From: a virus
Lineage: Duplodnaviria > Heunggongvirae > Uroviricota > Caudoviricetes
DNA length: 64,000 nt
Virus record (IMG/VR): IMGVR_UViG_3300025853_000035
Span: 1-64,000 of that record
Direction: 5' to 3' (one strand)
The stretch's first letter is position 1; the number at the start of each line of letters is the position of its first letter. Shown one piece after another: positions 4,107 through 63,453 of the stretch. The notes under the pieces are model-generated. The model was not told the DNA's origin. It did no database searches and saw only the letters and a list, made by a program, of their open reading frames with translations. The translations under genes and the position numbers were made by a program.

Positions 4107-5870
4107 TCAGCGGTGGCCAGCGCCGGTCATCTTCTTCGTCCCGCGACGGGCCTTCTGCTTGGCCCATTTCAGATATTGCGAGGTGGCGTCCACTTGGTCG
4201 TCATTCTTGCCGTTAGGGAAGGCCACGAGTTCCTTCTCATAATCGGCAAGCCACTTGGCGCTTTCCGGCAGGTAGACCTGCCCGGCCTCGAACATCGGCG
4301 TCACTTCGTCGAAACGGAACGACTTGCTCGCGGTGCCCACCTCGATTGGGATCAGCGCGGTAGGAGCACCACCATTCGCCTTCAACTGGCAATAGGCCAG
4401 ACCGTTGCCCTTGGCTTCGACCAGCAGGGCGTCGGCGTCGTAGCGCTTCACCACGCGGGCGATCTCGGACGACAGTTCGACCAGTTCCATTCGCTTGCGG
4501 ATCACGTCCACCAGATAATGGTTCCGTTTGAGGTCTTCGATCCAGACCGTGATGACGGTGTAGTCGCTTCGCTCCTTGTCCGTGTTCGCGGCGTCAACCG
4601 AAACCACGGTGCGACGAATCTGGTTCTGCGTTCCCTTCTCAGGATCGGCCTTGGCCGGCGGATGGGTGTAGCGCTGGAACCATTCAGCATCGACCGCGCC
4701 GCCGCTCACGTCCATAGGCGTGCCCTGATACAGCGAGTTCCACGACGCGGAAGTCATATCGCTTCTGAGATTTTCCAATGCGTCGAGGTCGTAAACCTCT
4801 GGCCACAATGCTTCGCCGGACGCCCGGCCTAGAATATCGTTGTCTTCTTCGGCGATGGCGGGGAGATTAATAATTTCAAAGCGGTATTTTTTGCGTTTTC
4901 CCTCTTTTTCCTCAAGAGAATCAATGAGTTGGTCCGCAAAATCTTTTTCTATTTTTTCTTGCTCTTCTCTTTTTTCCCGTTCTTCGCGATCTGAGATGCG
5001 TCCGCAGAGGTCGTCAGAGTGCCAGCGGGTCATAATAATGCCCAGCGGGGAACCCGGCAGAAGGCGCGTGGAGAAGTCGTCTGAATACCATTTGAACGCG
5101 GTGTCGCGGATCGTCGGGCTTTCAGCGTCCTTGCGGCTCTTGTAGGGATCGTCCACCATACCGTAGTGACCACGGAAGCCGGAGATACCCTGTCCGACAC
5201 CCTTGCCGACATATTTGCCCTTACCATTGGTCAGTGCCCAATAGTCCATGGCGCGCATGTCGTGCTTGATCTTGATGTCGGGGAAGACGCGCTGGTAATC
5301 CTCAGACGCGATGATCTGGCGAACGGTTGCACCGATTTCCTTGGCGACGAAGTCCTGACTGTGCCCGGCTTGCAGGAACTTCTGCTTCGATCCGAACTTG
5401 CCGAACCACCACGCAGGGAAGTGGTGCGACGAGTGGGTCGATTTACAGTGCCCCGGAGGCATGGACAGCATGAAGCGCATGGTCTCCTTGGAAGCGGAGG
5501 ACATGAGCAAGTCTCCGATGAGTTTCTGGTGCGGCGACATGGTGTAACCATTCTCGCGCTGCATGAACTCATAGAAATCGTGGTAGCTCTCGCGCGCCAG
5601 TTCGATCCAGACTTCGTCCAGTTCGGCCTCGGCGAAGTCGATCGTCTTATCGAGCGTGGTTAGCTGCGTGTCGAGATCGTCGGACTGACTAAGCGTCCGA
5701 AGTGCTTGGTAGTCGTGGGGCGAGAGGGTTGTCTGCTTGCGGACTGCTTCCTCCACTCGCGTCTGCAAGGACTTGAGTGACTTGACCGATGAGTGCAAGC
5801 GTGTTTTGCGGTCCCGCTTGCTTTCCGCTAGTTGCATCTGCTTGTGCTTTCTCGAACATTTTGAGGGCAT
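4107..5870 (-). CDS. terL: terminase large subunit
   Basis: 587-aa ORF. ATPase region plus the MTRWHSDDL motif and a C-terminal nuclease region (VSVDAANTDKERSDYTV, GKNDDQVDA). The start is uncertain: the listed start overlaps terS by about 180 nt, and later Met codons exist. Confidence 0.8.
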   Translation of the reverse strand: MPSKCSRKHKQMQLAESKRDRKTRLHSSVKSLKSLQTRVEEAVRKQTTLSPHDYQALRTLSQSDDLDTQLTTLDKTIDFAEAELDEVWIELARESYHDFYEFMQRENGYTMSPHQKLIGDLLMSSASKETMRFMLSMPPGHCKSTHSSHHFPAWWFGKFGSKQKFLQAGHSQDFVAKEIGATVRQIIASEDYQRVFPDIKIKHDMRAMDYWALTNGKGKYVGKGVGQGISGFRGHYGMVDDPYKSRKDAESPTIRDTAFKWYSDDFSTRLLPGSPLGIIMTRWHSDDLCGRISDREEREKREEQEKIEKDFADQLIDSLEEKEGKRKKYRFEIINLPAIAEEDNDILGRASGEALWPEVYDLDALENLRSDMTSASWNSLYQGTPMDVSGGAVDAEWFQRYTHPPAKADPEKGTQNQIRRTVVSVDAANTDKERSDYTVITVWIEDLKRNHYLVDVIRKRMELVELSSEIARVVKRYDADALLVEAKGNGLAYCQLKANGGAPTALIPIEVGTASKSFRFDEVTPMFEAGQVYLPESAKWLADYEKELVAFPNGKNDDQVDATSQYLKWAKQKARRGTKKMTGAGHR

Positions 5871-8640: not shown

Positions 8641-8788
8641 CGAATATCCCGACAAAATGTCCAATAAAAAATAAAAAGACACCCGGCGGCCCCTGAAACC
8701 CTTGGAAATCCGTCGCTTTCACCTTCCACCACTTTTTCTAACATTTTGGATCGTTGACAATTATCGCGTGATGCACCATCATGTGAGA

Positions 8789-10138
8789 ATGACCACACCA
8801 ACCAGCCATACTGACGCTGCCGACTCGCAGACGCCCGCCGCCGTCCCTGATGTGCCCTTCACCAGCCGCTCCGGTGCGCTACCCAACGAGCGCGTGATGA
8901 TCACCACGGGCATCTTCTATGTGATGGAGCACGACGGCCCCATCCGCTTCTGGATTCACGCGCGCACCTACAACAAGCGCCCGGTCGCTGGTGGTCCCAA
9001 GCGCGTTCGCGGCTTCAACGAGTATGACAAGGCCGTGCGCTTCATGCGCCGGGCGACCAAGGACGCGATCGCCGCTGATCCTGCCGTCCGCAAATGGTTG
9101 GCCAGCTATGAAGGTGTTGAGGCCAACAATGCCGCCGGCATCCAGAACTTAGACCCTGTGCCCCCTCGCAAGCGTGGCCGGCCGGTGGGCAGCAAGAATG
9201 CACCCAAGCCGCAGAAGCCGGGACCGAAGCCCAAACCGCCCGAACCGAAGAAGCGCGGACCCAAGCCGAAACCCCAGCCGCCCGCGCCGATCGAGCATCC
9301 GCCCGTGTCCTTGACCGCGCTGGTTGATCGCTTCCGCATCGAGCCGGAGCTTTCCAACCCGATCGCACAGGTCTGGCGCTGCGTCTCGAACACGGCTCCT
9401 GCTCGTGGCCGCCGGGCGCGCACCGGGAACAACCAGACCGGCGACCTTCCGCACCTGATGGGGAGCTACCTCATCACGCACTATGACCGGGGCGTCTATT
9501 CGGCCGCCTCGGATGAAGACGGCGTGGCCTATATCTATCCGACGTGGATCGACGCGGAACGGGAGGCCAAGTTCTTTTACGAGCAAGCGCCGGAACCCAA
9601 GCTGCCGATGGAAGGGATCACCCACTACCGGGTCGATCATGTTGAGGTTCACCTGACGCCCGCCATCCACGACGGCCGGCCCTATTCGCTGTTCGACACG
9701 CGGGTCTGTGCATATGTGCGCGACGGGCGCGGATACAAGTCCTACACCCGACTCGACAGTGCAAAAGAAGCGGCAAACGAATATGCCGACCTCGCGCCCT
9801 TCTCGGTGCGGCTGGCCCGCGCGCTGGTGGAGACGCCGGAAGAGAAGGCGAACCGCGAGCGCCGCGAGGAACTGGAAGCGATCGAAGCCGCCCGCGCCCA
9901 AGAGGAACGCGACCGCCTCTATGAAGAGGAGATGGCTGACCTCGCGCGCCGCCGGGCGAACGCGCCAGAGCGCCGGTTCCTGACACCGGAGGAGATCGCG
10001 ATCGAGAAGGCCAAGCGCGTGCAGATCATCAACCCGACGCCGGAGCAGAAGCTCGCCGCCCGCCGGGCCAAATATGTGCGCCGGTCCTATTCGGATCGGG
10101 AAGCGCGCGCCCACCGGCAGGCGGCGTCTGATTCGTAG
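8789..10138 (+). CDS. AT-hook-containing DNA-binding protein (candidate origin-binding protein)
   Basis: Pro/Lys-rich segment with AT-hook cores (PRKRGRPVGSKN, KKRGPKPKP) and a charged C-terminal coiled region. A TTGACA promoter lies inside the listed ORF, so the start was moved to the ATG at 8789. Confidence 0.55.
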   Translation: MTTPTSHTDAADSQTPAAVPDVPFTSRSGALPNERVMITTGIFYVMEHDGPIRFWIHARTYNKRPVAGGPKRVRGFNEYDKAVRFMRRATKDAIAADPAVRKWLASYEGVEANNAAGIQNLDPVPPRKRGRPVGSKNAPKPQKPGPKPKPPEPKKRGPKPKPQPPAPIEHPPVSLTALVDRFRIEPELSNPIAQVWRCVSNTAPARGRRARTGNNQTGDLPHLMGSYLITHYDRGVYSAASDEDGVAYIYPTWIDAEREAKFFYEQAPEPKLPMEGITHYRVDHVEVHLTPAIHDGRPYSLFDTRVCAYVRDGRGYKSYTRLDSAKEAANEYADLAPFSVRLARALVETPEEKANRERREELEAIEAARAQEERDRLYEEEMADLARRRANAPERRFLTPEEIAIEKAKRVQIINPTPEQKLAARRAKYVRRSYSDREARAHRQAASDS

Positions 10139-16369: not shown

Positions 16370-16744
16370 ATGATGACCATGAACCAAGTGATCGCCGCCC
16401 TCAAGGAACTGGCACCGGAACGCCCGGTCGTGTTCAGCTTTGCTGACATCGCGCCGACGACCGTGGCCAGCTATCGCGGATATTATGACCAGCCAGCGCT
16501 GGGCTGGGAACCGACCGGATACGACGGCGACGCCCGCCCGCCGGAGGCTGAGGCACTGATCGAACAGCTTGAAGGTGCGATCGGCACGATCTTCACCGGC
16601 TGGAAGGGCGGGGACTATCGCTACAACGGCGACGAGACGCTATGGGTTGCGAACCCCGGCAGCAGCACCGGTAACTTCATCACGGGCCTCGACCTCAGCG
16701 GCTATTTCGCCGTGCTGATCGTCGGCCGGGAGGAAGGATATTGA
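16370..16744 (+). CDS. hypothetical protein (124 aa)
   Basis: ORF only. Confidence 0.4.
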   Translation: MMTMNQVIAALKELAPERPVVFSFADIAPTTVASYRGYYDQPALGWEPTGYDGDARPPEAEALIEQLEGAIGTIFTGWKGGDYRYNGDETLWVANPGSSTGNFITGLDLSGYFAVLIVGREEGY

Positions 16745-17283
16745 GCGCCGACCAGATGCTGATCCTTGAGGCCGCTGCGTTCGCCGCCAGCCGCCATCAC
16801 GGGCAGGTCCGCAAATGGACCGGTGAGCCTTACGTCACGCACACCTTGGAGGTCGCCTCCATCGTCGCGCAAGTGACCGACGACACCGACATGATCATCG
16901 CCGCGATCCTGCACGACGTGGTGGAGGACACCAACACGCAAATCGGCGAGGTGTGGAACCGCTTCGGCTACGAGGTGGCGAACCATGTCCAATGGCTGAC
17001 TGACGTGAGCAAGCCGTCGGACGGCAACCGGGCGATCCGCAAGGCGATGGACCGTGAGCATATCGCGAAGGCTCCGCCCCGGACGAAGACGATCAAGCTG
17101 GCCGACCTGATCTCGAACTCCCGGTCGATCCTCGCGCTGGACGAAGGCTTCGCCCGCATCTACCTACCGGAGAAAATCCGGCTGCTCGGGGTGCTGATCG
17201 AGGGGAATGAATCCCTGTGGCAAGAGGCACACGAGATCGTCCAGCAGGGCCTCGCCAAGCTGGCGGAGAAGCGCGACGCATGA
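16741..17283 (+). CDS. small alarmone hydrolase, HD-domain (p)ppGpp hydrolase of the SpoT/Mesh1 family
   Basis: HHGQVRKWTGEPYVTHTLEVASI...IIAAILHDVVEDT and IKLADLISNSRSI match the RelA/SpoT hydrolase (HD) motifs. Confidence 0.8.
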   Translation: MSADQMLILEAAAFAASRHHGQVRKWTGEPYVTHTLEVASIVAQVTDDTDMIIAAILHDVVEDTNTQIGEVWNRFGYEVANHVQWLTDVSKPSDGNRAIRKAMDREHIAKAPPRTKTIKLADLISNSRSILALDEGFARIYLPEKIRLLGVLIEGNESLWQEAHEIVQQGLAKLAEKRDA

Positions 17284-17552
17284 GCGACTTCTACAAGCTG
17301 CATTTCTGGCGGCCGGCCGCCGGCTTCAATAGCATCACGCCCTGCGATCGCACGGACGAGCGCCTGAACCGCTGCGAGATCGAGTGCTTCGGTCCCGGCC
17401 GCGACACCCATGTCTTCCTCCGCGATGAAGGCGAGACGCTGCTGCGGTTCATCTATCGCATCCAAGGCGTCGAGACGCTGATGAAGGCCGCCCACTGGCA
17501 GGGCCGCCGGTTCCAAGCCGGCGTCATGAGAGAGGCGCTGGAAGTCCGATGA
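17280..17552 (+). CDS. hypothetical protein (starts MSDFYKLHFW)
   Basis: Internal ATG of ORF 17217..17552. Confidence 0.4.
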   Translation: MSDFYKLHFWRPAAGFNSITPCDRTDERLNRCEIECFGPGRDTHVFLRDEGETLLRFIYRIQGVETLMKAAHWQGRRFQAGVMREALEVR

Positions 17553-19434: not shown

Positions 19435-19631
19435 TGGTGTTCCTCGCTTGGTGCGGCATCGCATACATAACATGGTGCGTCGTAGGCTTTACCGTGGCCG
19501 GACTGCGGGACCGCTATGCACTCTACAGCCGCTTCGAGAAGGTTCTGGTCGCGGGACTCATCCCCTTGGTCGGCCTCTTCTATGTGGTGGCAACAGGCTG
19601 GCGCTGGTTTTTCTGGAGGCCCATCGAATGA
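19431..19631 (+). CDS. small membrane protein (starts MMVFLAWCGI)
   Basis: Internal ATG of ORF 19266..19631. Two TM helices. Confidence 0.4.
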   Translation: MMVFLAWCGIAYITWCVVGFTVAGLRDRYALYSRFEKVLVAGLIPLVGLFYVVATGWRWFFWRPIE

Positions 19632-20023
19632 GCTTGATCTACGTCGCCGCGCCTTACAGCCATGCCGATCCGGCCGTCGTCGCATCACGCGTCAACGCCT
19701 TCACGCACACCATGCGGGAACTCATCGCCTTGGGACATCACCCGGTGTCCCCGCTGATGAACCATCTCCTCGCCGAGACGGGCAACGAGTTCCCGCTGAC
19801 GTGGGACTATTGGGCCGACTTCTCCAAGAAGCTGCTCACCCGATGCGATCGCTTGTGCGTCCTCATTCTGCCCGGCTGGGAAGAATCGACCGGCGTTCAG
19901 GCCGAGATCACGATCGCCAAAGATCACGGCATCCCGGTAGGCTTCTGGATACCGCCGGAGAAGCTGATCACCGAAGACCTCTACGACGAACTGGCGGCCC
20001 GCATGAACTGGAGGACCAGATGA
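19628..20023 (+). CDS. DUF1937 / nucleoside 2-deoxyribosyltransferase-like protein
   Basis: MSLIYVAAPYS...CVLILPGWEESTGVQAEITIAKDHGIPV matches the DUF1937 pattern (IYxAxPYS ... GWExSxGxxxE). Confidence 0.5.
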   Translation: MSLIYVAAPYSHADPAVVASRVNAFTHTMRELIALGHHPVSPLMNHLLAETGNEFPLTWDYWADFSKKLLTRCDRLCVLILPGWEESTGVQAEITIAKDHGIPVGFWIPPEKLITEDLYDELAARMNWRTR

Positions 20024-20352: not shown

Positions 20353-21144
20353 TTGAAGAAAATCGCTCTCGCATTTGCCATGGTTCTGGGCCTGAGCGCC
20401 TGCGGCGTCGCTTCGCCCGATCCGGGTCAGGAAGCCGTCCTCGTGCAGAAGCCCATGTTCTTCGGCCACGGCGGCGTCGTTGATACCCCGGTGAAGACCG
20501 GCAAGGCATACACGGCGTTCACGACCGACGCGATCTATGTCGATATGTTCCCCAAGGAATATAAGGTCTCGTTCGACGACCTCATGACCAAGGACGGCGT
20601 GCCGATGCACTTCGACGCGACGCTGGTCCTGACCATCACGGACTCGGTCAAGCTGGTCGAGAAGTTCGGCCCCAAGTGGTTCGAGAACAACATCCAGAGC
20701 GTCTACGGAAGCCTGATCCGTCAGGAAGTCCGCAAGCACCCGATGACCGAGGTCGCGATCGACACCACGGCGATCGACAACATCGACCGGGTGATCAACG
20801 CCGAACTCAAGAAATATATCGCCGAGAAGGGCCTGCCGCTGGCCGTCGGCCGCAGCACCGTCGGCAAGGCCAATCCGCCCCCGTCGGTCAAGGACCAGCG
20901 CGTGAAGACGGCGCAGGAGCAGCAGCGCGCCGAGACCGAGGCCGCCGGCCAGAAGGCCGAAGTGACCCGCAAGGCCCGCGAGTTGGCCCGCGCCGAGGCG
21001 GACAACGCCTACCGCACCCAGATGAACCTCAGCCCGGACCAGTTCGTCGAACTGGAGCGGGTCAAGGCCATCAAGGAAAGCTGCGCCGACGGTGGCAAAT
21101 GCACCCTGATCGTCGGCGGACAGGCGCTCTACACCGCCAAGTAA
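20353..21144 (+). CDS. SPFH/band-7-like lipoprotein
   Basis: Lipoprotein signal MKKIALAFAMVLGLSAC, an SPFH-like core, and an Ala/Glu/Gln-rich coiled tail. Confidence 0.55.
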   Translation: MKKIALAFAMVLGLSACGVASPDPGQEAVLVQKPMFFGHGGVVDTPVKTGKAYTAFTTDAIYVDMFPKEYKVSFDDLMTKDGVPMHFDATLVLTITDSVKLVEKFGPKWFENNIQSVYGSLIRQEVRKHPMTEVAIDTTAIDNIDRVINAELKKYIAEKGLPLAVGRSTVGKANPPPSVKDQRVKTAQEQQRAETEAAGQKAEVTRKARELARAEADNAYRTQMNLSPDQFVELERVKAIKESCADGGKCTLIVGGQALYTAK

Positions 21145-21658: not shown

Positions 21659-22116
21659 CCCTCCCATATTACGACATATTTGGCGTCGGCGCGGCTGTCC
21701 GCTCCTTCATGCGGACCCTCGAAAACACCAACCGCAAAACCGGCCGGACCACCCGGACCGTGGAGCAGGTCCAGCCGGGCGATGTCGTCGTCTGCGGTGG
21801 TAACAAGACGCGGATGATCTACGCCTATGAACTCAAGAGGCGTGGTCTGGAAGTCGTTGGTTCGCCCAATCATCACTCCTACCGGAACGTCCTTCTGATC
21901 GTCGATCGCCCGGACCCCGACCGCGATCTGCTCCGCGCCTACCCGCAGACAGACGGCACCATCCACTTCACCCACGACTATGTGGAGCGGGTCTATGGCG
22001 ACGCCGTCGAGACCGCATCCAAGCGCCTCGCCAACATCCGGGATCGCTGGGGCAAGGAACCGGACCGGACCCGTGAACCCGCCATCAACCACATCGACCG
22101 TGAAGGATTCAACTGA
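21655..22116 (+). CDS. hypothetical protein (153 aa)
   Basis: ORF only. Confidence 0.4.
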   Translation: MTLPYYDIFGVGAAVRSFMRTLENTNRKTGRTTRTVEQVQPGDVVVCGGNKTRMIYAYELKRRGLEVVGSPNHHSYRNVLLIVDRPDPDRDLLRAYPQTDGTIHFTHDYVERVYGDAVETASKRLANIRDRWGKEPDRTREPAINHIDREGFN

Positions 22117-22745
22117 TGCGCCAGCCGACCATCTATCTCGACTGCGACGGCGTGCTCGCGGATTTCGATCGCGGCTTCGAGGAGCATTGGGGAATGCTCA
22201 GCGCCGACTATGAGAAGCGCTATGGCTCCACCCGTTTCTGGGAAGAGATCGAAGGCCATCCCGACTTCTTCGGCACCCTTCCGCTGATGCGGGACGCGCT
22301 GACGCTGTATGAAGGCGTCAAGCACCTGCGGCCGATCATCCTGACCGGTATGCCCAAGGGCGGCTGGGCGGACATCCAGAAGCGCCGATGGGCCGCCGCC
22401 CATTTCCCCAACGTCAAGGTCATCACCTGCCTGTCGGCCAAGAAGGCGCAATATTGCCAGCCGGGCGACATCCTGATCGACGACACGCCCAAGCACCGCT
22501 CGAAGTGGATCGCGGCCGGCGGCGTCTGGATCGACCACGCGGATGCGGCCACCTCGCTCGAAGCTTTGTGGGCACACCGTCCTGACCTCCGTCCGGGGAC
22601 AGCGGACATCACCTTGGCCAAGGCCGCGCTGATCGACCGGATCATCGACGCCTACCACACCACCCGCGTCTCCGGCACGTCGGCTTCCGCGCACATCCTG
22701 TCGAAGCCTTATGTGAAGCAGGCTTTCGCGGCCCTCGGTCTCTGA
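22116..22745 (+). CDS. 5'(3')-deoxyribonucleotidase (HAD, NT5C family)
   Basis: N-terminal IYLDCDGVLADF DxDxV HAD motif typical of NT5C-family deoxynucleotidases. Confidence 0.65.
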   Translation: MRQPTIYLDCDGVLADFDRGFEEHWGMLSADYEKRYGSTRFWEEIEGHPDFFGTLPLMRDALTLYEGVKHLRPIILTGMPKGGWADIQKRRWAAAHFPNVKVITCLSAKKAQYCQPGDILIDDTPKHRSKWIAAGGVWIDHADAATSLEALWAHRPDLRPGTADITLAKAALIDRIIDAYHTTRVSGTSASAHILSKPYVKQAFAALGL

Positions 22746-27206: not shown

Positions 27207-27482
27207 ATGAAATCGACGCCCACTTATCGCCTGACTGCCATCACCGCTGAGGGCACCAGCCTGTCCTCCGGGCGGGGCACCGGCCTTGAAGCCGCCATCA
27301 ACTATCTGAACCGCTTCGCGCTTGGCGATCCGACCGTCGTCGGGAACAAGACGCCGTTCGCGGCGGTCCTGCTGGAGGTCGATCCGGTCACCAGCGTTGC
27401 CACCCCGATCCACTCGTGGTCGGCAGGCGGCGACTTCACGCCGACCGTCGCCGAGGAAGCGCCCGTCAATGAAGCTGACTGA
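27207..27482 (+). CDS. hypothetical protein (91 aa)
   Basis: ORF only. Confidence 0.4.
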   Translation: MKSTPTYRLTAITAEGTSLSSGRGTGLEAAINYLNRFALGDPTVVGNKTPFAAVLLEVDPVTSVATPIHSWSAGGDFTPTVAEEAPVNEAD

Positions 27483-27789
27483 CGACAATTTCGAGCAGGT
27501 GCTGCCGGCGACGACCCGGCCGTTCCTGCTCAACTTCCGCTCGTCTTTCTGCGGCCCGTCCAATGTCGTCGCCGGCCTTCTCGATCACCTGTTCGACGAG
27601 GGCTGGCTGGCTGATGAGGACATCATCGACATTGATGTCGAAGCTTTCCCCAAGCTCACCCGCGCGATGCAGATCAAGGGGACGCCCACGCTGCTCCTCA
27701 TGAAGGACGGCCAGCCGCTCGGCTCGCGCATCGGCACCATGCCCTATGAGGACTTGGTCGCCTTCATCTCAACCGCCCACGACAAATAG
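27469..27789 (+). CDS. thioredoxin-like protein (monothiol CGPS motif)
   Basis: FLLNFRSSFCGPSNVVAGLL...KGTPTLLLMKDG resembles a thioredoxin fold (FxxxWCGPC, cis-Pro TPT). Confidence 0.5.
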   Translation: MKLTDDNFEQVLPATTRPFLLNFRSSFCGPSNVVAGLLDHLFDEGWLADEDIIDIDVEAFPKLTRAMQIKGTPTLLLMKDGQPLGSRIGTMPYEDLVAFISTAHDK

Positions 27790-36002: not shown

Positions 36003-36473
36003 ATGGTTCCAATAACGAGTAATCTGCCCGGCGTTCTGTGCGTCGAAGTGAGTGAACTGGAGCCAGACCCGAACGCCTTATACCGCTGCTGCTTCACCGG
36101 CGGCCGGGATTTCACCGACAAGGATTGGGTCTGGCGCAACCTCTACGAACTGAACGGCTATGCCGAGGTAGGGGCGATCGCCGAGATCGGAATCGGCTGC
36201 GCCACCGGCGTGGATGCCTTGGTGCTGGAATGGGCGATCGCCAAGAACGTGGCGTGGACTCGCTACGTCGCCGATTGGGATCGGTTCGGCACCGCCGCCG
36301 GCTCCATCCGCAACACCGCCATGCTGGAGGACTTCCAGCCGGACTATCTGGGAGTGTTTCCCGGTGGCGTGGGCACGACCCACTGCGCACGAACAGCACG
36401 CAAGCTGGGGATCGAACGCGTGTTCCTTACCCCTGAGATCGATCCCTTCGAAGAGGCTTCCAAATGGGGATGA
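36003..36473 (+). CDS. SLOG/DprA-like Rossmann protein (DUF2493-like)
   Basis: YRCCFTGGRDFTDKDWVWRNL resembles the TGxRD motif of DUF2493/SLOG proteins. The assignment is tentative. Confidence 0.35.
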   Translation: MVPITSNLPGVLCVEVSELEPDPNALYRCCFTGGRDFTDKDWVWRNLYELNGYAEVGAIAEIGIGCATGVDALVLEWAIAKNVAWTRYVADWDRFGTAAGSIRNTAMLEDFQPDYLGVFPGGVGTTHCARTARKLGIERVFLTPEIDPFEEASKWG

Positions 36474-36713: not shown

Positions 36714-37934
36714 ATGAGCATCCGCAAGTCCATCACGCATCAACTCAAGCACAACAGCGCCCTCCACGGCGCGATCCTGTCCGGTGGCGCGGCGCTCATC
36801 ACCAAGCTCTACGAGGCATATCAGGAGCGGCAGGTGCTTCGGGTCCGGTTCAATTCGGACATGCCTGACTATGCCGCCATCACGCGCTACATCACCGATC
36901 ATCTGCTCGACACCGAGCGGAGCCGGTCCTTCACCTATTCGGCGGACAGCCGCTGGCGGGACGGCGAGGAAACCACCGAGAACCAGACGCTGGCGATCGG
37001 CTACGGCAACCACGCCGGGCGCTTCCGTGGCACCCTGATCGAAGTGGAGCGATCCCTCGACGAGAGCAACCGGGCGGGGACGTTCAAGGAAACGCTGGTC
37101 GTGACCTTCATCACTCGCGACAAGGCCGTCGTCCGGGATTTCATCGACGAACTGGTCAAGATCACCAGCGCCGGGTCGGCCGTGTTCAAGCACGTCCCAA
37201 TCTACACCAACACTTCGTCCTATTGGGATCGCACCGGCAAGCTGCCCCTGCGTTCGATCGAGAGCGTGTTCACGGCGGACGACGCCGGGCAGCATGTGGT
37301 GGACGCCGTCCGCGCCTTCGAGGCCAAGAAGGATGAGCATCACCGCCTCGGCCTGCCCCATCACATCGGCATCCTCCTGCATGGCGAACCGGGCTGTGGT
37401 AAGTCGAGCCTGATCCATGCCGTCGCCTCCGAACTCCAGCGGTCGATCTATTATCTCAATCTGGGGTCGGTCACCGACGACTCCTGCCTCACGAGCCTGC
37501 TGGCCGGGACGCGTGATTGGTCGAAGGCGCTACTGGTGCTGGAGGACATCGACGCAACCGGCGTGATGGTCAACAGGGCCGAGGGAGGCGCTGAGAAGGG
37601 CAAGAAGAAGAAAGACAAGGCGAAGGAGCAGGACGCGGCGGTAACCGCCTCCAGCAGCCCTGTGAGCCTGTCTGTGCTGTTGAACTCGCTGGACGGCATC
37701 CTGTGCCCGGACGGTCTCGTCGTCATCGCCACCACCAACCACCTCGACCGGCTGGACCCGGCCCTGCGCCGCCCCGGCCGCTTCGATCACCTGATCGAGC
37801 TTGGCAAGCTGGGCTATGACGATTTCGTCCGCATGGCCCGCCTGTTCGGCAAGGACCCTAACCAGTTCCTCGTCGCAAATGACGTGGAGATGACCGGGGC
37901 ACAGATGCGCGCGATCCTGCTGGATGTCGCATAG
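36714..37934 (+). CDS. BCS1-like AAA+ ATPase
   Basis: Walker A GILLHGEPGCGKSS, Walker B ALLVLEDIDA, and SLLNSLDGI...VVIATTNHLDRLDPALRRPGRFD (sensor/arginine finger typical of BCS1-type AAA). Confidence 0.75.
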   Translation: MSIRKSITHQLKHNSALHGAILSGGAALITKLYEAYQERQVLRVRFNSDMPDYAAITRYITDHLLDTERSRSFTYSADSRWRDGEETTENQTLAIGYGNHAGRFRGTLIEVERSLDESNRAGTFKETLVVTFITRDKAVVRDFIDELVKITSAGSAVFKHVPIYTNTSSYWDRTGKLPLRSIESVFTADDAGQHVVDAVRAFEAKKDEHHRLGLPHHIGILLHGEPGCGKSSLIHAVASELQRSIYYLNLGSVTDDSCLTSLLAGTRDWSKALLVLEDIDATGVMVNRAEGGAEKGKKKKDKAKEQDAAVTASSSPVSLSVLLNSLDGILCPDGLVVIATTNHLDRLDPALRRPGRFDHLIELGKLGYDDFVRMARLFGKDPNQFLVANDVEMTGAQMRAILLDVA

Positions 37935-39762: not shown

Positions 39763-39792
39763 AACTCGATCTGCAAACAGGAAGATTTGTCC

Positions 39793-41148
39793 ATGAAGAA
39801 ACAGCTTACGGCGGCCTTCGTCAAGGGCCTCAAGCCCGGTCCGAAGAAACAGGTGATCACTGATTCTGTGGCGGCCAACCTCCGCCTGATCGTCCACCCG
39901 ACCGGGCGAAAGATTTGGGCATGGCAAGGCAAGGTGAACGGTGAGCCGAAGACGGTGACGCTGGGTCAGTGGTTGGAGACCGGAGGCATGGACCTGTCCG
40001 CCGCCCGCGAGCGAGCGACCGAGATCAACACCGCCAAGGTCGAGGGAAGAGCGGTGAGCTTCCTAACGCCCAGCGAGGAGTCATCCGAGCCGGCGATCGA
40101 CCCGCGCGCCTCCCTCACCTGCGACTGGATGTTCGATCAATATATGGCGGCCGAGGGCGAGACGAGGAAGACGGCCAAGGAGAAGCGGACCACCTACAAC
40201 CGGGAGATCAAACCGACGCTGGGTGAGCGGCAGATCGACACCATCACCTACGACGATCTGGCGGCGATCGTGCAGAAGAAGTTTGCGGAAGGGAAGGGGC
40301 CGGCGTCGAACCGGCTCAAGGCGCTCATCGCCCGCTGGTGGAAGTGGGGCGTCTCGCGCGGCCGGGCCGTGACCGGTCTGACCGTCAACCCGGCGATCGA
40401 TCTGGTGAGCCTCGCCGACGAGAACAAGCGTCGTCGCTACCTCACGAATTACGAGATCGGGGTGTTCTTCAAAGGAACCTATTTGGCTCGTGACACCTTC
40501 GCTGAGATGATGACCGTCATCCTCTACACCGGCCTGCGACGGAGCGAGGCGGCCGGTCTGACATGGGACGAGGTCCGCTTCCACGACAACACGATTCTGA
40601 TCAGCGGTGAGCGGATCAAGAACGGGTTGGACCTGCTGCTGTGGATGCCGGACACGGTGGTCGCGATCCTGCGCCAACGCAAGCGCCTCACCGGCAATTA
40701 CAAATACGTCTGGCCGGCCCCGTTCTCGTGGAGGCAGGGCGAGACGGTCGATGAAGACGAGGACACGTCGAAGGAGCTAATCAGCTTCACGAAGCCCATG
40801 AACGCGCTCAACGAGACCTGCCAGAAGCTGGCGGCGAAGGAGCGGAAGACCATGGAGCGGTTCACCGTCCACGATCTGCGTCGCACGCTGGCGACGGGTA
40901 TGCGGGGATTGAGGGATGCCGAGGACAAGCCTCTCATCCTGTCGGACATCGTCGAGCGGGTCATCAACCACATCATCGGCGGCGTCCGGGGCAACTACGA
41001 TCACCACGACTATTTCGCGGAGAAGAAGGCGGCGCTCCGCATTTGGGCGGAGCACCTTGATCCGATCAGGCTGACCGCTCACGCAGCCATTGAGAAAACT
41101 CACTCCGCAGCCAGCGGGTCGCCTGCACGTTCACTGGCTGAGGCATGA
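39793..41148 (+). CDS. int: tyrosine integrase (P4-type)
   Basis: N-terminal arm-binding domain (LTAAFVKGLKPGPKK...ANLRLIVHPTGRKIWAWQGKVNG, DUF4102-like) and a catalytic region with HDLRRTLATGM and a C-terminal Tyr. Adjacent to a tRNA fragment and arm repeats. Confidence 0.9.
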   Translation: MKKQLTAAFVKGLKPGPKKQVITDSVAANLRLIVHPTGRKIWAWQGKVNGEPKTVTLGQWLETGGMDLSAARERATEINTAKVEGRAVSFLTPSEESSEPAIDPRASLTCDWMFDQYMAAEGETRKTAKEKRTTYNREIKPTLGERQIDTITYDDLAAIVQKKFAEGKGPASNRLKALIARWWKWGVSRGRAVTGLTVNPAIDLVSLADENKRRRYLTNYEIGVFFKGTYLARDTFAEMMTVILYTGLRRSEAAGLTWDEVRFHDNTILISGERIKNGLDLLLWMPDTVVAILRQRKRLTGNYKYVWPAPFSWRQGETVDEDEDTSKELISFTKPMNALNETCQKLAAKERKTMERFTVHDLRRTLATGMRGLRDAEDKPLILSDIVERVINHIIGGVRGNYDHHDYFAEKKAALRIWAEHLDPIRLTAHAAIEKTHSAASGSPARSLAEA

Positions 41149-42417: not shown

Positions 42418-42753
42418 ATGATGGGGGACTATGCTCACGAGCCGCCGGACGATGAGACTGATCCGGTCTATCTCCTGCTCAAGGCAGGGTATAGGCCGGA
42501 GCAGTTCGAGGCCGCCTGCAAGCGCCTCCGTCCGATGGCACTCGACGATTATCTGCGTGAGCCGTTCTCGGACCTCGAAAAGATGATCTTGCGGTTGGCG
42601 GTGGAGAACACATCGTGGATCACCACCTACCGCACCCACGCCCCAACCCGTGACTCGCCCATGCTGATCCGTGAAGCATTGACCGCGTTGCGAACCCTCG
42701 CCGCCAAGCTCGAAGACTTCGGCATCGAAGTCAACTACATCCCCAACGATTGA
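42418..42753 (+). CDS. hypothetical protein (starts MMGDYAHEPP)
   Basis: Internal ATG of ORF 42133..42753. Confidence 0.4.
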   Translation: MMGDYAHEPPDDETDPVYLLLKAGYRPEQFEAACKRLRPMALDDYLREPFSDLEKMILRLAVENTSWITTYRTHAPTRDSPMLIREALTALRTLAAKLEDFGIEVNYIPND

Positions 42754-42764
42754 AAAGGAGCCAC

Positions 42765-43865
42765 ATGTTCGACATCTGTGTATTCGCTGGCCGTATGCGT
42801 CCGCCGACGGCCGCTCATCTGGCCAACATCCGCGCCGGCCTCGCCGCTTCCCAATATGTCTTCGTCATCATCGGCTCGACCGGTGAAGCCCCGCACTTCA
42901 AGAACCCCTTCACGTTCGACGAAGTCCAGACCATGATCCGTGGCTCGCTGTCGGCGGCCGAGAATGATCGCGTCTTCGTCCACGGCGTCCGCGACCGCGA
43001 CAATGACCTTGCGTGGGTCCGCGACGTGCAGAAGATCGTCCACGAACAGGCGACCGCGCTGTCGATCCCCGGCGAGCCGCGTATCGCTCTGGTAGGCTGC
43101 AACAAGGACGGCTCGTCCTATTACCTCAAGCTCTTCCGCCAGTGGGGAAGCATCGGTGTCGAGCCGATCCTGAACGACGGCGAATCGATGTCGGCGACCG
43201 CCATGCGTATGGCGCTCTACGAAGCCGAGGACCCCGGCCGCGTCCTCAAGACGTGGAAGGACCTGTTCGGCGCTTCCTATCTCCCGCACGGCACCTTCTG
43301 GTTCCTGCGCCAGTGGGTGAACACCGAGCACTTCCAGCAGATGCGGGCCGAGGCGCTGTTCATGCGGGACGAACTCAAGAAGTTCCAGCCGAACCCCTAC
43401 ACCGGCCAGCCGCAGCAGCACAATTGCGCCGACTTCTATCTACAGCACGGCGGCGCTGTCCTGCTGGTCAAGCGCGATCGGATGCCCGGCGAAGGGCTGT
43501 GGGCGGTGCCCGGCGGGCACAAGCACGCCTACCAGACGTTCCGCGACGCAGCGCTCGCTGAGCTTGGTCAGGAAACCAGCATCTTCGACCTGAACGAAGC
43601 CATCACGCCCGACGTGATCAACAGCTACATCCGGGGCGACAAGCTGCTCGACAATCCGTGGCGGTCGAACCGCGAAGTGACCGTCTCGGTAGCTTACGGC
43701 GCGCTGCTGCCCGGCAGCTTCACCCGGCCGCTGATCGAAGGCGCTGACGACGCCCGCGAAGCCCGCTGGTGGAACATCGACGAGATCACCCGTGACATGA
43801 TGTTCGAAGACCACTTCAACATCATCGAGGATTTCTCGAACCGCTTCCGCGATCTGACGATCTAA
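42765..43865 (+). CDS. nadM: bifunctional NMN adenylyltransferase / Nudix ADP-ribose pyrophosphatase (NadM-Nudix)
   Basis: N-terminus ICVFAGRMRPPTAAHLANI matches the archaeal-type NMNAT motif GRFQPxH/TxGH. C-terminal Nudix box GGHKHAYQTFRDAALAELGQETS. SD AAGGAG before the ATG. Confidence 0.7.
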   Translation: MFDICVFAGRMRPPTAAHLANIRAGLAASQYVFVIIGSTGEAPHFKNPFTFDEVQTMIRGSLSAAENDRVFVHGVRDRDNDLAWVRDVQKIVHEQATALSIPGEPRIALVGCNKDGSSYYLKLFRQWGSIGVEPILNDGESMSATAMRMALYEAEDPGRVLKTWKDLFGASYLPHGTFWFLRQWVNTEHFQQMRAEALFMRDELKKFQPNPYTGQPQQHNCADFYLQHGGAVLLVKRDRMPGEGLWAVPGGHKHAYQTFRDAALAELGQETSIFDLNEAITPDVINSYIRGDKLLDNPWRSNREVTVSVAYGALLPGSFTRPLIEGADDAREARWWNIDEITRDMMFEDHFNIIEDFSNRFRDLTI

Positions 43866-43877: not shown

Positions 43878-45344
43878 ATGAGCTATATCACGACCATCGG
43901 GGAACTGCTGAACCAGCCGATCCTCAACAGCGACACCTACAAGAACAGCCACTGGACGTTCGAGCACCCGCAGTTCACTTCGAGCTACGGCTACATCGAA
44001 GCCCGTAAGGGTGGCGAGTTCAGCGAGGTCATGTTCTTCGGCCTGCAATACCTGCTGCGCTATTACCTGACCCAGCGCGTCACCGACTCGGTGATCGCCC
44101 ACGCCCGCCGCTTCCTCCCGCTGCACGGCGTGCCGTTCAACGAAGAAATGTGGACGACCATCCGCGACAAGCACGATGGCCGGTGGCCGGTGCGGATCAA
44201 GGCGCTTCCAGAGGGCGTCCTCGTCCCGCAGGGCTGTGTCCTTGTCACGGTGGAATCGCTCGACGAGGAATGCGCCGGTGTCGCCGCGTTCGTCGAAACC
44301 CTGCTGCTTCGCGGCGTCTGGCTCCCCACCACGATCGCCACCCGGTCGATGCGCTGGTGGCGTCTGGTCGATCGCTACCTCACCCAGAGCGGCACGCCGG
44401 AGACGGCGGAGTTCAAGGTGGTGGACTTCTCGGCGCGCGGCGTCCGGTCGTCCGAGGACGCAGGCATCTCCGGCATGGCCCATCTCCTGAACTTTCAGGT
44501 GACCGACAATCTGCTTGGCATCCTGTTCGGCCAGAACGCCTACACGACCGAAACCATGCTGGGATATTCGATCCCGGCGACCGAGCACTCGGTCACCACG
44601 TCGTGGGGCAAGGAAAACGAGCAGGCGTTCTTCGAGCACATTCTCGAAGTCCATGGCCAGACCGTGAACCCGCTGGGCGGCCGGTCGCCGGTGTCGGTGG
44701 TGATCGACACCTACGATCAGGACAACGCCGTCCGCATGTGGCTGACGCCGGCCGAGAAGGGCGGTTGCGGCCTCCGCGAGAAGCTGGAAGCGTCGAACAT
44801 GTGCGTCGTGCTGCGGCCGGACTCGGGTGATCCGATCATCAACGTCGTCCACCTGCTCGACCTGATCGGAAGCCTGACGGGCTGGACGGTCAACGAGAAG
44901 GGCTTCCGCGTCCTCCCGGATTTCGTTCGCGTCATTCAGGGCGACGGCATCCACGAAGAATCGCTGCGCCGCATCCTCCAGCGTGTGGTCTACCACACTT
45001 GGTCGATCGACAACCTGACCTTCGGTTCGGGCGGTGGTCTGATGATGCACGACGTGGAGCGCGACACCCACCGCTTCGCCATGAAGACCTCGGAAGTGGT
45101 CATCGGCGGTATCACCAGCGCCGTCCGCAAGGAGGTCAAGACCGATCCGTCCAAGGCATCCAAGGCCGGGCGCTTCGCAGTGGTGATGGAGAACGACGTG
45201 CTGATCACCATCCCGGAAGACGAACTCAACGGTCGTCTCAACTATCTGCGGACGGTCTACGAGGACGGCGAACTGGTCGCCCCTGAGACGTTCGATCAGG
45301 TCCGGGAGCGCGCTCGCCAGTGGCGCGTCATCGGGCACGGCTAA
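43878..45344 (+). CDS. nadV: nicotinamide phosphoribosyltransferase (NadV/NAMPT)
   Basis: N-terminus LNQPILNSDTYKNSHW matches the NAMPT DT/SYKxxH signature. 488 aa. Confidence 0.8.
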   Translation: MSYITTIGELLNQPILNSDTYKNSHWTFEHPQFTSSYGYIEARKGGEFSEVMFFGLQYLLRYYLTQRVTDSVIAHARRFLPLHGVPFNEEMWTTIRDKHDGRWPVRIKALPEGVLVPQGCVLVTVESLDEECAGVAAFVETLLLRGVWLPTTIATRSMRWWRLVDRYLTQSGTPETAEFKVVDFSARGVRSSEDAGISGMAHLLNFQVTDNLLGILFGQNAYTTETMLGYSIPATEHSVTTSWGKENEQAFFEHILEVHGQTVNPLGGRSPVSVVIDTYDQDNAVRMWLTPAEKGGCGLREKLEASNMCVVLRPDSGDPIINVVHLLDLIGSLTGWTVNEKGFRVLPDFVRVIQGDGIHEESLRRILQRVVYHTWSIDNLTFGSGGGLMMHDVERDTHRFAMKTSEVVIGGITSAVRKEVKTDPSKASKAGRFAVVMENDVLITIPEDELNGRLNYLRTVYEDGELVAPETFDQVRERARQWRVIGHG

Positions 45345-52322: not shown

Positions 52323-53564
52323 TTAGCCCTTGACGTTCAAGACCTGCCGGAGCCGGTGCTTGATCTCGACCAGATCGTCCTGAGCGGCCATGACCGCACC
52401 GATCGGCTTGTAGGCGGCCGGACTCTCGTCCAGCACATCCGCATCAAGGCGGGCCTCGATCCCCTTCATGGCCTCGGCGTGCTGCTCCATGGTGATCAGC
52501 GCCTTGGCCTTGGTCCGGCTCATGGTCCGCCCGGCTCCGTGGCTGCACGAGTGGAACGAGTTCGGGTTGCCCTTGCCCTCCACGATGAAGCTGCCGGTGC
52601 CCATGGAGCCGGGGATGATCCCCAAGGTGCCCTCACGAGCCTGCACGGCACCCTTGCGGGTCACCCAGACATTCTCGCCGTAGTGCGACTCTCGGGTCAC
52701 ATAGTTGTGGTGGCAGTTGACCGCCATCTGCTCGGACATGAACGGGGGAAGGGTCTGACGCAGCACCCGGAGGACAGCCGCCATCATCTCCTTCCGGTTC
52801 TCCATGGCGAACTCCTGTGCCCACTCGACCGCCTCGCAGTAGTCGTCGTAGACCTCGGTGTGCTCTACCAGATAGGACAGGTCCTGATCCGGCAGATAGT
52901 CCGCGATGTGATAGCGGTGCATCTCCTCCTTCGCCTTCTCGATGAAGTAGGTGCCGATCGCGTTGCCGATACCGCGCGAGCCGGAGTGCAGCATCACCCA
53001 GACCCGGTTCTCCTCGTCGAGGCAAAGCTCGATGAAGTGGTTGCCGGTGCCGAGCGATCCCAGATGCTGGGTCGGAAGCCGACGCTGGGCGATCTTAGGG
53101 TGCTTGGCGATGATCGCGTCATAACCCTTCTCCAGATACTTCCAGCGCTCGACGACGGAGGCCGGCGGGTTGCCCCATGAGCCGGGATCACGCCCGCCAC
53201 GAATCTGATCCATGGTTCCGCGACCGTGAGGAACCGCCGCCTCGATCATCCCACGGATATGGGATAGGCTGTCCGGGAGATCGTCGGCGGTCAGGGAGAG
53301 GCGAAGCGCCATCATCCCACAGCCAATATCGACGCCGACCGCCGCCGGGACGATCGCGCCCTTGGTGGCGATCACGGTGCCTACGGTCGAACCCTTGCCG
53401 GCGTGAGCGTCAGGCATCACGGCGACGTGCTTGTGGACGAAAGGCATCCGCGCCATGTTCTCGATCTGCTGGATGGCCTCAGCCTCGAACGGATAGCCCT
53501 CCGGCTCCCACAGCTTGACCAGCTTCTTGCGGCCGAAACTGTCCTCAACCTGATGAACGCGCAT
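52323..53564 (-). CDS. rtcB: RtcB RNA ligase (3'-phosphate/2',3'-cyclic phosphate RNA-splicing ligase)
   Basis: 413 aa. MPDAHAGKGSTVGTV, HSGSRGIGN and NCHHNY motifs typical of RtcB. Confidence 0.85.
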   Translation of the reverse strand: MRVHQVEDSFGRKKLVKLWEPEGYPFEAEAIQQIENMARMPFVHKHVAVMPDAHAGKGSTVGTVIATKGAIVPAAVGVDIGCGMMALRLSLTADDLPDSLSHIRGMIEAAVPHGRGTMDQIRGGRDPGSWGNPPASVVERWKYLEKGYDAIIAKHPKIAQRRLPTQHLGSLGTGNHFIELCLDEENRVWVMLHSGSRGIGNAIGTYFIEKAKEEMHRYHIADYLPDQDLSYLVEHTEVYDDYCEAVEWAQEFAMENRKEMMAAVLRVLRQTLPPFMSEQMAVNCHHNYVTRESHYGENVWVTRKGAVQAREGTLGIIPGSMGTGSFIVEGKGNPNSFHSCSHGAGRTMSRTKAKALITMEQHAEAMKGIEARLDADVLDESPAAYKPIGAVMAAQDDLVEIKHRLRQVLNVKG

Positions 53565-56700: not shown

Positions 56701-56913
56701 CTCGACCACGTCGGGATTACCCGCGACGAAGATGCCGACAGCATCGCCGGTGTCAGTGACCAGATCGATCCACGGGTCGTTGGCATTTGACGCCCACGCG
56801 CCGACTTGCAGGAGATCATCGCTCGTGAACTCGTTCCCATCAGCATCGGAAACGGTGATCGCGCCGGTCGTGCGATCGAACAGATCGCAGATGAATTTGG
56901 TGTATAGAGCCAT
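53755..56913 (-). CDS. DNA primase/helicase (P4/D5-family NTPase C-terminal domain)
   Basis: 1052 aa. Walker A VITGGKGTGKSTL and Walker B FFVLRCSD in the C-terminal half, consistent with a phage/plasmid primase P4-type C-terminal domain. Central poly-acidic linker (EEDEEEEEEP). Confidence 0.65.
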   Translation of the reverse strand: MALYTKFICDLFDRTTGAITVSDADGNEFTSDDLLQVGAWASNANDPWIDLVTDTGDAVGIFVAGNPDVVEPQPSFDVSGGMIYMLDGDPVSGQKSGLHLCPLSVFLDSKGKVNLDGLNWYLPQDLDIQTPGTMTNITLMTGRRRDEAQGKWKEVSSTFGQFETMLQDHKEGQKDGPCFLQGQSANGARKAVAMIANHILGVDLDSGAPLDDVMRTIQQHGLEAVIYTTHSHLKNTSVIKRDHFMKWAEASEVEEEAVRDYLIKKKGVLPAIVEELTILDDAHHSEDGVVILVQHKPMPKFRAVFPLKEAFVFAKRGGSQKDAIDEWKERYAGFCTALDLFFDEKCVDPARLFYLPRHASKDKAFGSWVVCGEPLDLDKFDRVKMRRGRDNKRSAVASNAFTAAGGADDGDEDDANRYITSGGFNLKGWSIKHAKRFDVQAMLEDVIGGDFIREGRGNKAGVHVECPFEAEHSSFGGGGTFVVNASDNLEDGYEGGFTFNCTHNACSGRDRLDYLKELIEQELITPADLTNKDYLFELEEDEEEEEEPVKPKKPTPRADAPTTDEAEEPEFEDDDLDFGDSEETMLRAFNRRYAVIRTSGGVKILVEPRSADDDVIFETQGDVKLFEKNRVIWIAEGKQSKKLAGFDLWLEWDKRRTYRQVVFAPGRRVAKDIYNLFRGWPYEPVPTTWENILDNKDEPVAGDWSMLRGHIYENICESNDEYFEWLMTWLAMLFQKPEAKPGSTLVITGGKGTGKSTLFDFINKLLGFHGITVSQRKQIVGQFNGHLETALLMVCEEAFWAADPQAEGVLKDMITNKSVLIEKKGYDPIQSENYTRLALISNNDWVVPASLKDERRFFVLRCSDARQGDLEFFGLMREQMDKKGGLQAMLHDLLHWKPVKGTFASLFTPPKTDHLQKQQIETLSGVQKFMLELVKSGLYETSDENRFPSIELNDDRETMVYAKDLRAAVSDYVRFLFSSDKAKTSFDDISTVVGDWFGAREVKMKLDGQTNQSRVFIFPPLSQVRANLKESKGLDIEIMSEEDVKAMKVRGL

Positions 56914-62757: not shown

Positions 62758-62833
62758 TGGCACGGGTGGTGGGACTCGAACCCACGTTGCACGGTTTTGG
62801 AGACCGGCCGAATAGCCGCTATCTTACACCCAT
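62758..62833 (-). tRNA. tRNA-Trp (CCA)
   Basis: Manual cloverleaf: acceptor ATGGGTG/CACCCGT, T-arm GTGGGTTCGAGTCCCAC, anticodon loop CTCCAAA, encoded CCA. Confidence 0.6.
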
Positions 62834-62842
62834 GTGAAACGC

Positions 62843-62926: not shown

Positions 62927-62933
62927 TCATATC

Positions 62934-63020: not shown

Positions 63021-63027
63021 ATTAAAC

Positions 63028-63100: not shown

Positions 63101-63102
63101 AT

Positions 63103-63446: not shown

Positions 63447-63453
63447 ATAACTC

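Follow-up and report, generated by a model that had tools for sequence, protein, structure and literature searches.

A stand-alone RelA/SpoT-homologue hydrolase gene in a 64-kb stretch of phage DNA

What could a stand-alone small alarmone hydrolase (SAH) do for the phage that carries it? The question is raised by a 180-residue gene within the first 64,000 nucleotides of the IMG/VR virus record IMGVR_UViG_3300025853_000035 (Caudoviricetes), a stretch that we refer to as the window. An initial annotation had read this gene as a phage-encoded hydrolase able to blunt the host stringent response and to detoxify alarmone-based toxins. Phage SAHs have already been described and tested: the stand-alone enzymes of phages SSU5 (PaSpo) and PVP-SE1 (PbcSpo) neutralize the toxic small alarmone synthetases (toxSAS) CapRel, PhRel, PhRel2, FaRel, and FaRel2, and have been proposed to provide incoming phages with a bypass of alarmone-mediated defence (Jimmy et al. 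2020, PMC7229694). The “HD-alarmone PDEases” of jumbo phages have likewise been predicted to be counter-defence enzymes (Iyer et al.). Here we show from its family, predicted fold, intact active site, and purifying selection that the window gene encodes a stand-alone hydrolase of the RelA/SpoT-homologue (RSH) family, and we weigh what such an enzyme might act on during infection.

The gene and its hydrolase domain

The open reading frame (ORF) begins with TTG on the + strand, exactly where it had been placed, and is set among small genes, as the initial annotation had also described; these run in long same-strand series. The gene and its immediate surroundings are as follows, with L002 denoting a collinear metagenomic contig that encodes a 92%-identical SAH.

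16370..16744, + strand: upstream neighbour, 124 aa, function unknown, phrog_12889; not a synthetase; conserved together with the SAH gene in L002
16729..16734, + strand: Shine-Dalgarno sequence GGAGGA, 6 nt 5′ of the SAH TTG; identical in L002
16740-16744, + strand: start/stop overlap ATTGA, in which the SAH TTG overlaps the stop codon of the upstream gene
16741..17283, + strand: SAH coding sequence, 180 aa, TTG start, TGA stop; a single HD_4 RelA/SpoT-homologue hydrolase domain
17280..17552, + strand: downstream neighbour, 90 aa, function unknown; its ATG overlaps the SAH stop codon (ATGA)

The TTG start is credible because it is preceded by the Shine-Dalgarno sequence, overlaps the upstream stop codon, and is retained with that sequence in L002, where the alternative ATG at codon 6 has become ATA. 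The ATTGA overlap suggests that translation of the SAH is coupled to that of the upstream gene. GC content by codon position (0.64/0.39/0.87) fits a real gene in a genome of 61% GC. We detected no terminator-like site in the + strand interval from 7.8 to 21.5 kb of the window, which fits one long co-directional transcription unit. Early expression of the genes around the SAH is plausible; a promoter scan gave eight weak consensus matches where 3.9 are expected, and we do not use it as support.

Profile searches place the protein in the RSH family. It matches Pfam HD_4 (PF13328) with an E-value of 2.2e-18 and a score of 66.9 bits (gathering cutoff 27.2), and phrog_990 (“metal-dependent phosphohydrolase”) in the PHROGs collection with E=7e-37. 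The N-terminal hydrolase region of NCBIfam TIGR00691 (spoT_relA) is matched with E=8e-27, a partial match as expected of a single domain. Among sequences in the PDB, human MESH1/HDDC3 and the mycobacterial Rel hydrolase domain match best (both E ~1e-17), the MESH1 match spanning residues 7-159 and thus nearly the whole protein; RelH, the Pseudomonas aeruginosa SAH, and the (p)ppApp hydrolase Aph1 match more weakly. The polypeptide consists of the hydrolase domain only: domain and fold span its entire length, and no synthetase, TGS, or ACT domain is present.

We assigned residue roles by alignment to human MESH1 and counted conservation in a 90-sequence family alignment. In MESH1, His35, His61, Asp62, and Asp122 bind the metal, and Glu65 and Asp66 are needed for catalysis, the E65A and D66K variants being inactive. 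Arg24 and Lys25 stack on or hydrogen-bond with the purine, Tyr32 and Asn126 touch the phosphate, Tyr146 binds the ribose 3′-OH, and Arg142 touches the nicotinamide riboside of NADPH (Ding et al., bioRxiv 10.1101/325266). The codons of the corresponding SAH residues fall mainly in three short segments.

16810..16842, + strand: codons of Arg24-Lys25 (purine stacking, N7 contact), Tyr31 (phosphate), and His34 (first metal ligand); conserved in 86-90 of 90 sequences
16912..16929, + strand: codons of His58-Asp59 (HD metal dyad) and Glu62-Asp63 (catalytic ED), motif LHDVVEDT; invariant in 90/90
17104..17118, + strand: codons of Asp122 (fourth metal ligand) and Asn126 (phosphate contact), motif IKLADLISN; invariant in 90/90

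All 11 of the metal, catalytic, and nucleotide-contact residues of MESH1 considered here are present in the SAH, and each is kept in 85-90 of the 90 family members and in SSU5 PaSpo. The metal tetrad His34, His58, Asp59, and Asp122 corresponds to MESH1 His35, His61, Asp62, and Asp122, while the catalytic pair Glu62-Asp63, three residues past the HD dyad, corresponds to Glu65-Asp66; both sets are conserved in 90/90 sequences. Arg24, Lys25, Tyr31, Asn126, and Tyr141 stand for the MESH1 contacts Arg24, Lys25, Tyr32, Asn126, and Tyr146. The segment at 16912..16929 is the sole match to a degenerate HDxxED pattern in the whole window. The position of MESH1 Arg142 is missing, since it sits in a four-residue insertion absent from both the SAH and SSU5 PaSpo. 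The HD motifs are thus all intact, as the initial annotation had claimed, and the HD dyad, whose loss it had equated with an inactive domain, is invariant along with the other metal ligands.

From the 90-sequence alignment, AlphaFold2 gives a model of very high confidence (predicted local distance difference test 97.8, predicted template-modelling score 0.92) that consists of ten helices and a short hairpin at residues 23-30. Foldseek ranks MESH1 first among structures similar to this model, followed by RelH, the P. aeruginosa SAH, and the hydrolase domains of Rel/SpoT proteins. Template-modelling (TM) scores for human and Drosophila MESH1 range from 0.83 to 0.86, with root-mean-square deviations of 2.1-2.2 Å; human MESH1 itself scores 0.85. 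Relative to the SAH of L002, the gene has a dN/dS ratio of 0.23, and none of the 15 amino-acid differences falls in the motifs. Family models, catalytic residues, predicted fold, and purifying selection therefore all agree with the single-domain SpoT/Mesh1-type hydrolase that had been proposed.

Characterized relatives and distribution

The closest characterized relative is PaSpo of Salmonella phage SSU5 (SSU5_099), to which the window SAH is 46% identical over 153 residues (E=3e-36). This match scores 112 bits, against at most 68 bits for any other characterized SAH. The two proteins share identical catalytic residues and a P-x-DGNR insertion that is absent from MESH1. Both are stand-alone phage hydrolases encoded among small genes of unknown function, and both are orphans, PaSpo having no adjacent toxSAS annotated. 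PaSpo differs in its length (213 aa), in an extra C-terminal insertion, and in its carrier, an enterobacterial phage-plasmid-like siphophage. Neutralization of toxSAS is an experimentally shown feature of PaSpo and a predicted one of the window SAH. By best match and the shared DGNR insertion, the window SAH would group with the PaSpo subfamily in the classification of Atkinson 2011 and Jimmy 2020.

MESH1/HDDC3 (PDB 3nr1, 5vxa, 9chy), which hydrolyses ppGpp and strips the 3′-pyrophosphate from tRNA, shares with the SAH its full-length fold (TM 0.85-0.86, root-mean-square deviation 2.1 Å), ~31% identity, the metal ligands, the ED pair, and the base and ribose contacts. It differs in having the insertion that bears Arg142, in being without the DGNR insertion of the phage subfamily, and in being a eukaryotic cytosolic enzyme rather than the product of a phage accessory gene. 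Corynebacterium glutamicum RelH (7qod), the P. aeruginosa SAH (6yvc), Xanthomonas XccSAH (Mesh1-L), and C. marina ATfaRel (PbcSpo) are also single-domain RSH hydrolases, with TM scores of 0.79-0.85. Bacterial SAHs break down (p)ppGpp, (p)ppApp, or both and give protection from toxic synthetases. Unlike the phage enzyme, they are chromosomal, and their similarity to it is low (46 bits for RelH and 27 bits for the P. aeruginosa SAH, compared with the PaSpo score above); ATfaRel is operon-linked to its toxin, whereas the window SAH stands without one.

The hydrolase domain of long Rel/SpoT proteins (mycobacterial Rel, 8fr8/5xnx; RelSeq, 1vj7) is homologous over residues 3-133 (E=1e-17 to 6e-12), with the same HD and ED motifs. 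Unlike these proteins, the SAH is without synthetase, TGS, and ACT domains and hence has none of their allosteric regulation; once expressed, it is presumably constitutively active. The (p)ppApp-specific hydrolase Aph1 (7smg; PMC10083569) belongs to the HD superfamily and has a distantly related fold (TM 0.54-0.62), but its similarity is marginal (E=7.5e-4 over residues 7-67 only), and the lack of significant full-length similarity rules out the SAH as a member of the Aph1 family. Judged against these systems, the predicted protein has every testable defining feature of an RSH hydrolase domain and of a stand-alone SAH; an operon-linked toxin, the nicotinamide riboside motif of Mesh1, and Aph1 membership are all lacking.

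Homologues of the SAH are numerous, with 2,487 at E<=1e-10 in a large protein collection, nearly all of them stand-alone proteins of 160-200 aa; the nearest is the 92%-identical one and the next is ~62% identical. At least 496 stretches in IMG/VR encode a relative by an alignment-based scan, the best 80 all being full-length at 45-58% identity; looking up the exact protein sequence, and scanning IMG/VR with the single protein, returned no match. A scan of one genome per species (185,579 species) gave 80 loci among the matches listed, of which only four hold full-length relatives, at 47-52% identity and all on short contigs of metagenome-assembled genomes (MAGs) or single-amplified genomes (SAGs). 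The remaining bacterial loci among the matches listed comprise 59 long Rel/SpoT genes and ~17 more distant stand-alone SAHs. The viral and bacterial counts are lower bounds, and the contrast between them is still strong: by this survey, the subfamily of the window SAH is predominantly borne by viruses and mobile genetic elements. A homologue is also carried in 247 cultured-phage records. At the nucleotide level, megablast found no relatives among cultured phages, and blastn gave short matches only, inside the SAH genes of unrelated phages.

Several contexts in which relatives occur deserve mention. In the MAG of Rhodospirillales bacterium 69-11 (L006:3671-7869, L007:2362-6560), a 57%-identical SAH immediately follows a relaxase/Toprim gene and precedes a tyrosine integrase. 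The SAH there lies, by its gene neighbourhood, at the edge of an integrative mobilisable element, and the subfamily thus extends to mobile elements other than phages. The two best bacterial-genome matches listed (L010:2654-4003, a Thiotrichaceae MAG, and L011:4959-6332, a Pseudomonadota SAG) are proteins of ~450 aa, 49% identical in their SAH domain, which is fused to a C-terminal region of ~270 aa that weakly matches Swt1-like HEPN (E=4e-4, short of the Pfam cutoff). In the viral contig IMGVR_UViG_3300027608_001849 (L130:35-6697, + strand), the SAH domain forms residues 804-925 of an ORF of at least 2,221 aa that also contains an LPD38 “large polyvalent protein” domain. Large polyvalent proteins are thought to be injected along with phage DNA (Iyer et al.), which suggests that this hydrolase is delivered as part of an injected multi-enzyme protein.

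A further arrangement recurs in 34 of the 81 viral loci (L092, L093, L094, L097, L113, and ~29 other IMG/VR loci; for example L094:4146-5092 and L092:6500-7387), where the SAH stands among a DSP/PTP-type phosphatase, an AAA_33 P-loop kinase, and a T4 Rnl1-type RNA ligase. An unknown 181-aa protein and, in several loci, a DUF2828/DUF7788 protein accompany them, and gene order varies. In its phosphatase, kinase, and ligase, this neighbourhood resembles an RNA-repair cassette. We found no literature link between DUF2828 and RNA repair and leave this neighbour as a protein of unknown function.

The phage and the accessory status of the gene

The window is phage DNA, with a terminase, a primase/helicase, RtcB, a tRNA array, and long runs of small co-directional genes, including ~41 kb of densely packed, mostly small + strand genes. 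Genes of note in it are the following.

4107-5870, − strand: large terminase TerL
8702-10138, + strand: 478 aa, opening the + strand block and its largest gene; unmatched in PHROGs and Pfam
19631-20023, + strand: nucleoside 2-deoxyribosyltransferase-like protein (DUF1937/DUF4406), in the small-gene block
20353-21144, + strand: Band_7/SPFH protein, in the small-gene block
22116-22745, + strand: NT5C-type 5′-nucleotidase (weak match), in the small-gene block
27322-27789, + strand: thioredoxin, in the small-gene block
36003-36473, + strand: SLOG-family (YAcAr) protein, adjoining the BCS1-type AAA ATPase
36714-37934, + strand: BCS1-type AAA ATPase, 54% identical in Erythrobacter phage XM05
38085-38768, + strand: Rv2179c-like 3′-5′ exoribonuclease (E=7e-36)
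39787-41148, + strand: tyrosine integrase-like gene (phrog_1, E=3e-39)
42750-43865, + strand: NMNAT/cytidylyltransferase-Nudix protein (phrog_395)
43878-45344, + strand: NadV, nicotinamide phosphoribosyltransferase (phrog_448, E=9e-129)
52323-53564, − strand: RtcB RNA ligase (phrog_1075, E=3e-146)
53755-56913, − strand: primase/helicase
62758-63978, − strand: eleven tRNA genes

The TerL sequence shares 75.6% identity with its counterpart in Erythrobacter phage XM05, 72% with the one in Sphingobium phage Lacusarx, and 66% with the one in Erythrobacter phage vB_EliS-L02; these phages are all CbK-like siphophages of Sphingomonadales with genomes of 130-152 kb. On this terminase kinship, the window phage is itself a CbK-like siphophage of Sphingomonadales, and its host is therefore probably a sphingomonad. 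The backbone held in common with XM05 comprises TerL, a resolvase, the AAA ATPase, NMNAT, and NadV.

The SAH lies outside this backbone. Nothing in XM05 matches positions 13.3-21.1 kb of the window, and the 49 kb stretch of XM05 that is syntenic with the window contains no gene with an HDxxED motif. The XM05 gene annotated as a “phosphoesterase” (XM05_231) was considered as an equivalent and rejected, as it has no similarity to the SAH. The papers on Lacusarx and vB_EliS-L02 describe MazG and no SAH, and none of the three phages is among the 40 best of the 247 cultured-phage records with a homologue. Within this phage type, the gene is common only to the window and L002. Because XM05 is without a matching block and the gene is shared only with L002, the SAH gene is by this comparison accessory, and the block of small genes that holds it is variable. 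For the 478-aa gene that opens the + strand block, L002 has an 86%-identical counterpart, and none was detected in XM05.

Other observations concern further genes of the window and their counterparts. The NMNAT-Nudix/NadV pair is kept in XM05 (55% and 67% identity) and is described in Lacusarx; such NAD+ salvage pairs have been proposed to counter abortive-infection systems that deplete NAD+. The XM05 homologue of the window AAA ATPase is annotated, apparently wrongly, as a “major head protein”. Like the window with its tyrosine integrase-like gene, Lacusarx encodes tyrosine recombinases, two in number, yet it tested non-temperate.

Possible roles and competing explanations

Published work on related enzymes and on the toxins they oppose frames what the window SAH might do. 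FaRel2, PhRel, PhRel2, and CapRel attach pyrophosphate to tRNA at its 3′ CCA end and make no alarmone, and both MESH1 and ATfaRel restore aminoacylation of pyrophosphorylated tRNA in vitro (Kurata et al.). Co-expression of PaSpo is a routine means of detoxifying CapRel-SJ46 and FaRel2, and the enzyme is stated to take the modification off the tRNA. Because its active site is fully conserved, the window SAH most likely performs the same chemistry. It would be a metal-dependent 3′-pyrophosphohydrolase, using Mn2+ by analogy, that during infection strips the 3′-pyrophosphate from (p)ppGpp and (p)ppApp, as characterized relatives do, and probably also the pyrophosphate from tRNA CCA ends modified by toxSAS of the CapRel, PhRel, and FaRel2 types. 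Removal of these groups would keep host translation and transcription running. The enzyme would in this way blunt both the stringent response and toxSAS-type abortive infection, and the host would be kept from shutting down.

Taken as a whole, these considerations make it likely that the gene specifies a functional, stand-alone, PaSpo-like SAH, carried as a phage accessory gene and acting against alarmones or toxSAS. Several points count against this. The sequence does not reveal which substrate is preferred (G versus A, nucleotide versus tRNA end), and an enzyme 46% identical to PaSpo could have diverged from it in function. Among cultured relatives, XM05, Lacusarx, and vB_EliS-L02 apparently do without an SAH, which is therefore not essential to this phage type. 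The roles put forward in the initial annotation, blunting the stringent response and detoxifying toxSAS or CapRel, are those published for phage SAHs. Its description of the toxins as alarmone-based was imprecise for the CapRel type, which act on tRNA.

Our reading of the window SAH is essentially the published view of phage SAHs; it leaves current understanding unchanged and holds no surprise for the specialist. Modestly new are the occurrence of the gene in CbK-like phages of Sphingomonadales, a host clade in which the members described so far are without it, its clear accessory status, and the chiefly viral character of its subfamily. Phage SAHs form an established, thinly characterized class of candidate counter-defence genes: to our knowledge tests exist for only two of them, in each case by co-expression in E. 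coli, and for none during a real infection. The window gene is a reasonable candidate for learning, in a natural phage-host pair, which target SAHs oppose (the stringent response, (pp)pApp toxins, or CapRel-type immunity that pyrophosphorylates tRNA), because it is accessory, lies in a variable block, and shares its window with NAD+ salvage genes, RtcB, and a tRNA array.

Other explanations of the gene are less likely. Were the SAH a type IV antitoxin of a phage-borne toxSAS module, shielding phage or lysogen from its own synthetase, it would resemble C. marina ATfaRel, which is encoded beside a toxSAS, and phages do carry PhRel, PhRel2, and CapRel (PMC7229694). Such a synthetase is not apparent here. 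Pfam searches found no RelA_SpoT synthetase domain in 30 ORFs of the window (the ten around the SAH and twenty further mid-sized ones), and the ten ORFs around the gene, the immediate neighbours included, gave no significant Pfam match at all. We also built a synthetase-domain hidden Markov model (HMM) from the 59 long Rel/SpoT genes of the bacterial loci, whose consensus holds the hallmark synthetase motifs. Run against all six frames of the 64 kb window and the sequence within 6 kb of the SAH in 80 viral loci, it gave a best E-value of 0.8, with a sensitivity to very divergent toxSAS that was not validated. When all ORFs lying up to 2.5 kb from the SAH were clustered across 81 loci, no universally conserved neighbour emerged; the two largest clusters in the viral loci proved to be antisense shadow ORFs inside the SAH gene and were discarded. 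A conserved two-gene module of SAH and 90-aa protein was likewise rejected, as the 90-aa ORFs found 3′ of the SAH in four contexts are non-homologous except for that of the near-identical L002. Within the reach of these searches, the window SAH is an orphan and not an operon-linked antitoxin; because no toxSAS synthetase lies beside it, it is not of the ATfaRel type. The antitoxin explanation is largely refuted by this evidence, and we regard it as extremely improbable. We give even less credence to an inactive or decaying HD-domain remnant with no enzymatic role. That the closest cultured relatives are without the gene marks it as dispensable, but its catalytic residues are intact, its dN/dS ratio is low, its full-length ORF has a good ribosome-binding site, and its model is very confident.

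A metabolite 2′/3′-phosphatase like metazoan MESH1, acting on NADPH, CoA, or PAPS and reshaping cofactor pools, for instance by feeding the NAD+ salvage of the window, is very unlikely. MESH1 is the best structural match and is an NADPH phosphatase (bioRxiv 10.1101/325266), a recent abstract ascribes CoA phosphatase activity to it as well, the bacterial orphan XccSAH also dephosphorylates NADPH weakly, and the window encodes both NadV and an NMNAT/Nudix protein. However, the nicotinamide riboside contact Arg142 sits in the insertion that the SAH and SSU5 PaSpo are without, and XccSAH, likewise without this motif, is ~40-fold worse than Mesh1 on NADPH and far better on alarmones. A distance of 26 kb separates the NAD+ genes from the SAH, and XM05 keeps these genes yet is without an SAH.

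A closer competitor to the PaSpo-like counter-defence enzyme, if still an unlikely one, is an enzyme primarily of RNA-end repair, whose substrate would be tRNA with a 3′-(pyro)phosphorylated CCA end in place of free alarmones and which would work alongside the other tRNA-protection functions of the phage. MESH1 and ATfaRel, which restore aminoacylation, were likened by Kurata et al. to the 3′-phosphatase of T4 Pnk, and the removal of the FaRel2 tRNA modification stated for PaSpo points the same way. Close relatives stand beside the phosphatase, kinase, and RNA ligase in the 34 of 81 viral loci described above, and the window itself has RtcB, the Rv2179c-like exoribonuclease, and 11 tRNAs. Yet the cassette is limited to 8 of 50 SAH groups (at 80% identity), the window SAH not among them, and RtcB lies 35 kb from the SAH on the opposite strand. 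Because the SAH keeps all of its purine-nucleotide contacts, free alarmones remain good candidates, and the two activities are compatible. The cassette and the polyvalent protein of L130 fit the counter-defence role favoured here and modestly raise the case for RNA-end repair. For the virus-dominated subfamily at large, it is conceivable but doubtful that the in vivo substrate is tRNA 3′ ends (pyro)phosphorylated by host defence toxins rather than free alarmone pools. If so, the subfamily would be a dedicated part of the toolkits with which phages repair RNA and counter host defence, joined by kinase, phosphatase, and RNA-ligase partners in some lineages and delivery inside injected polyvalent proteins in others. 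In the window, the combination of RtcB, eleven tRNAs, the Rv2179c-like exoribonuclease, and the SAH suggests a heavy investment by this phage in protecting or replacing the tRNA pool.

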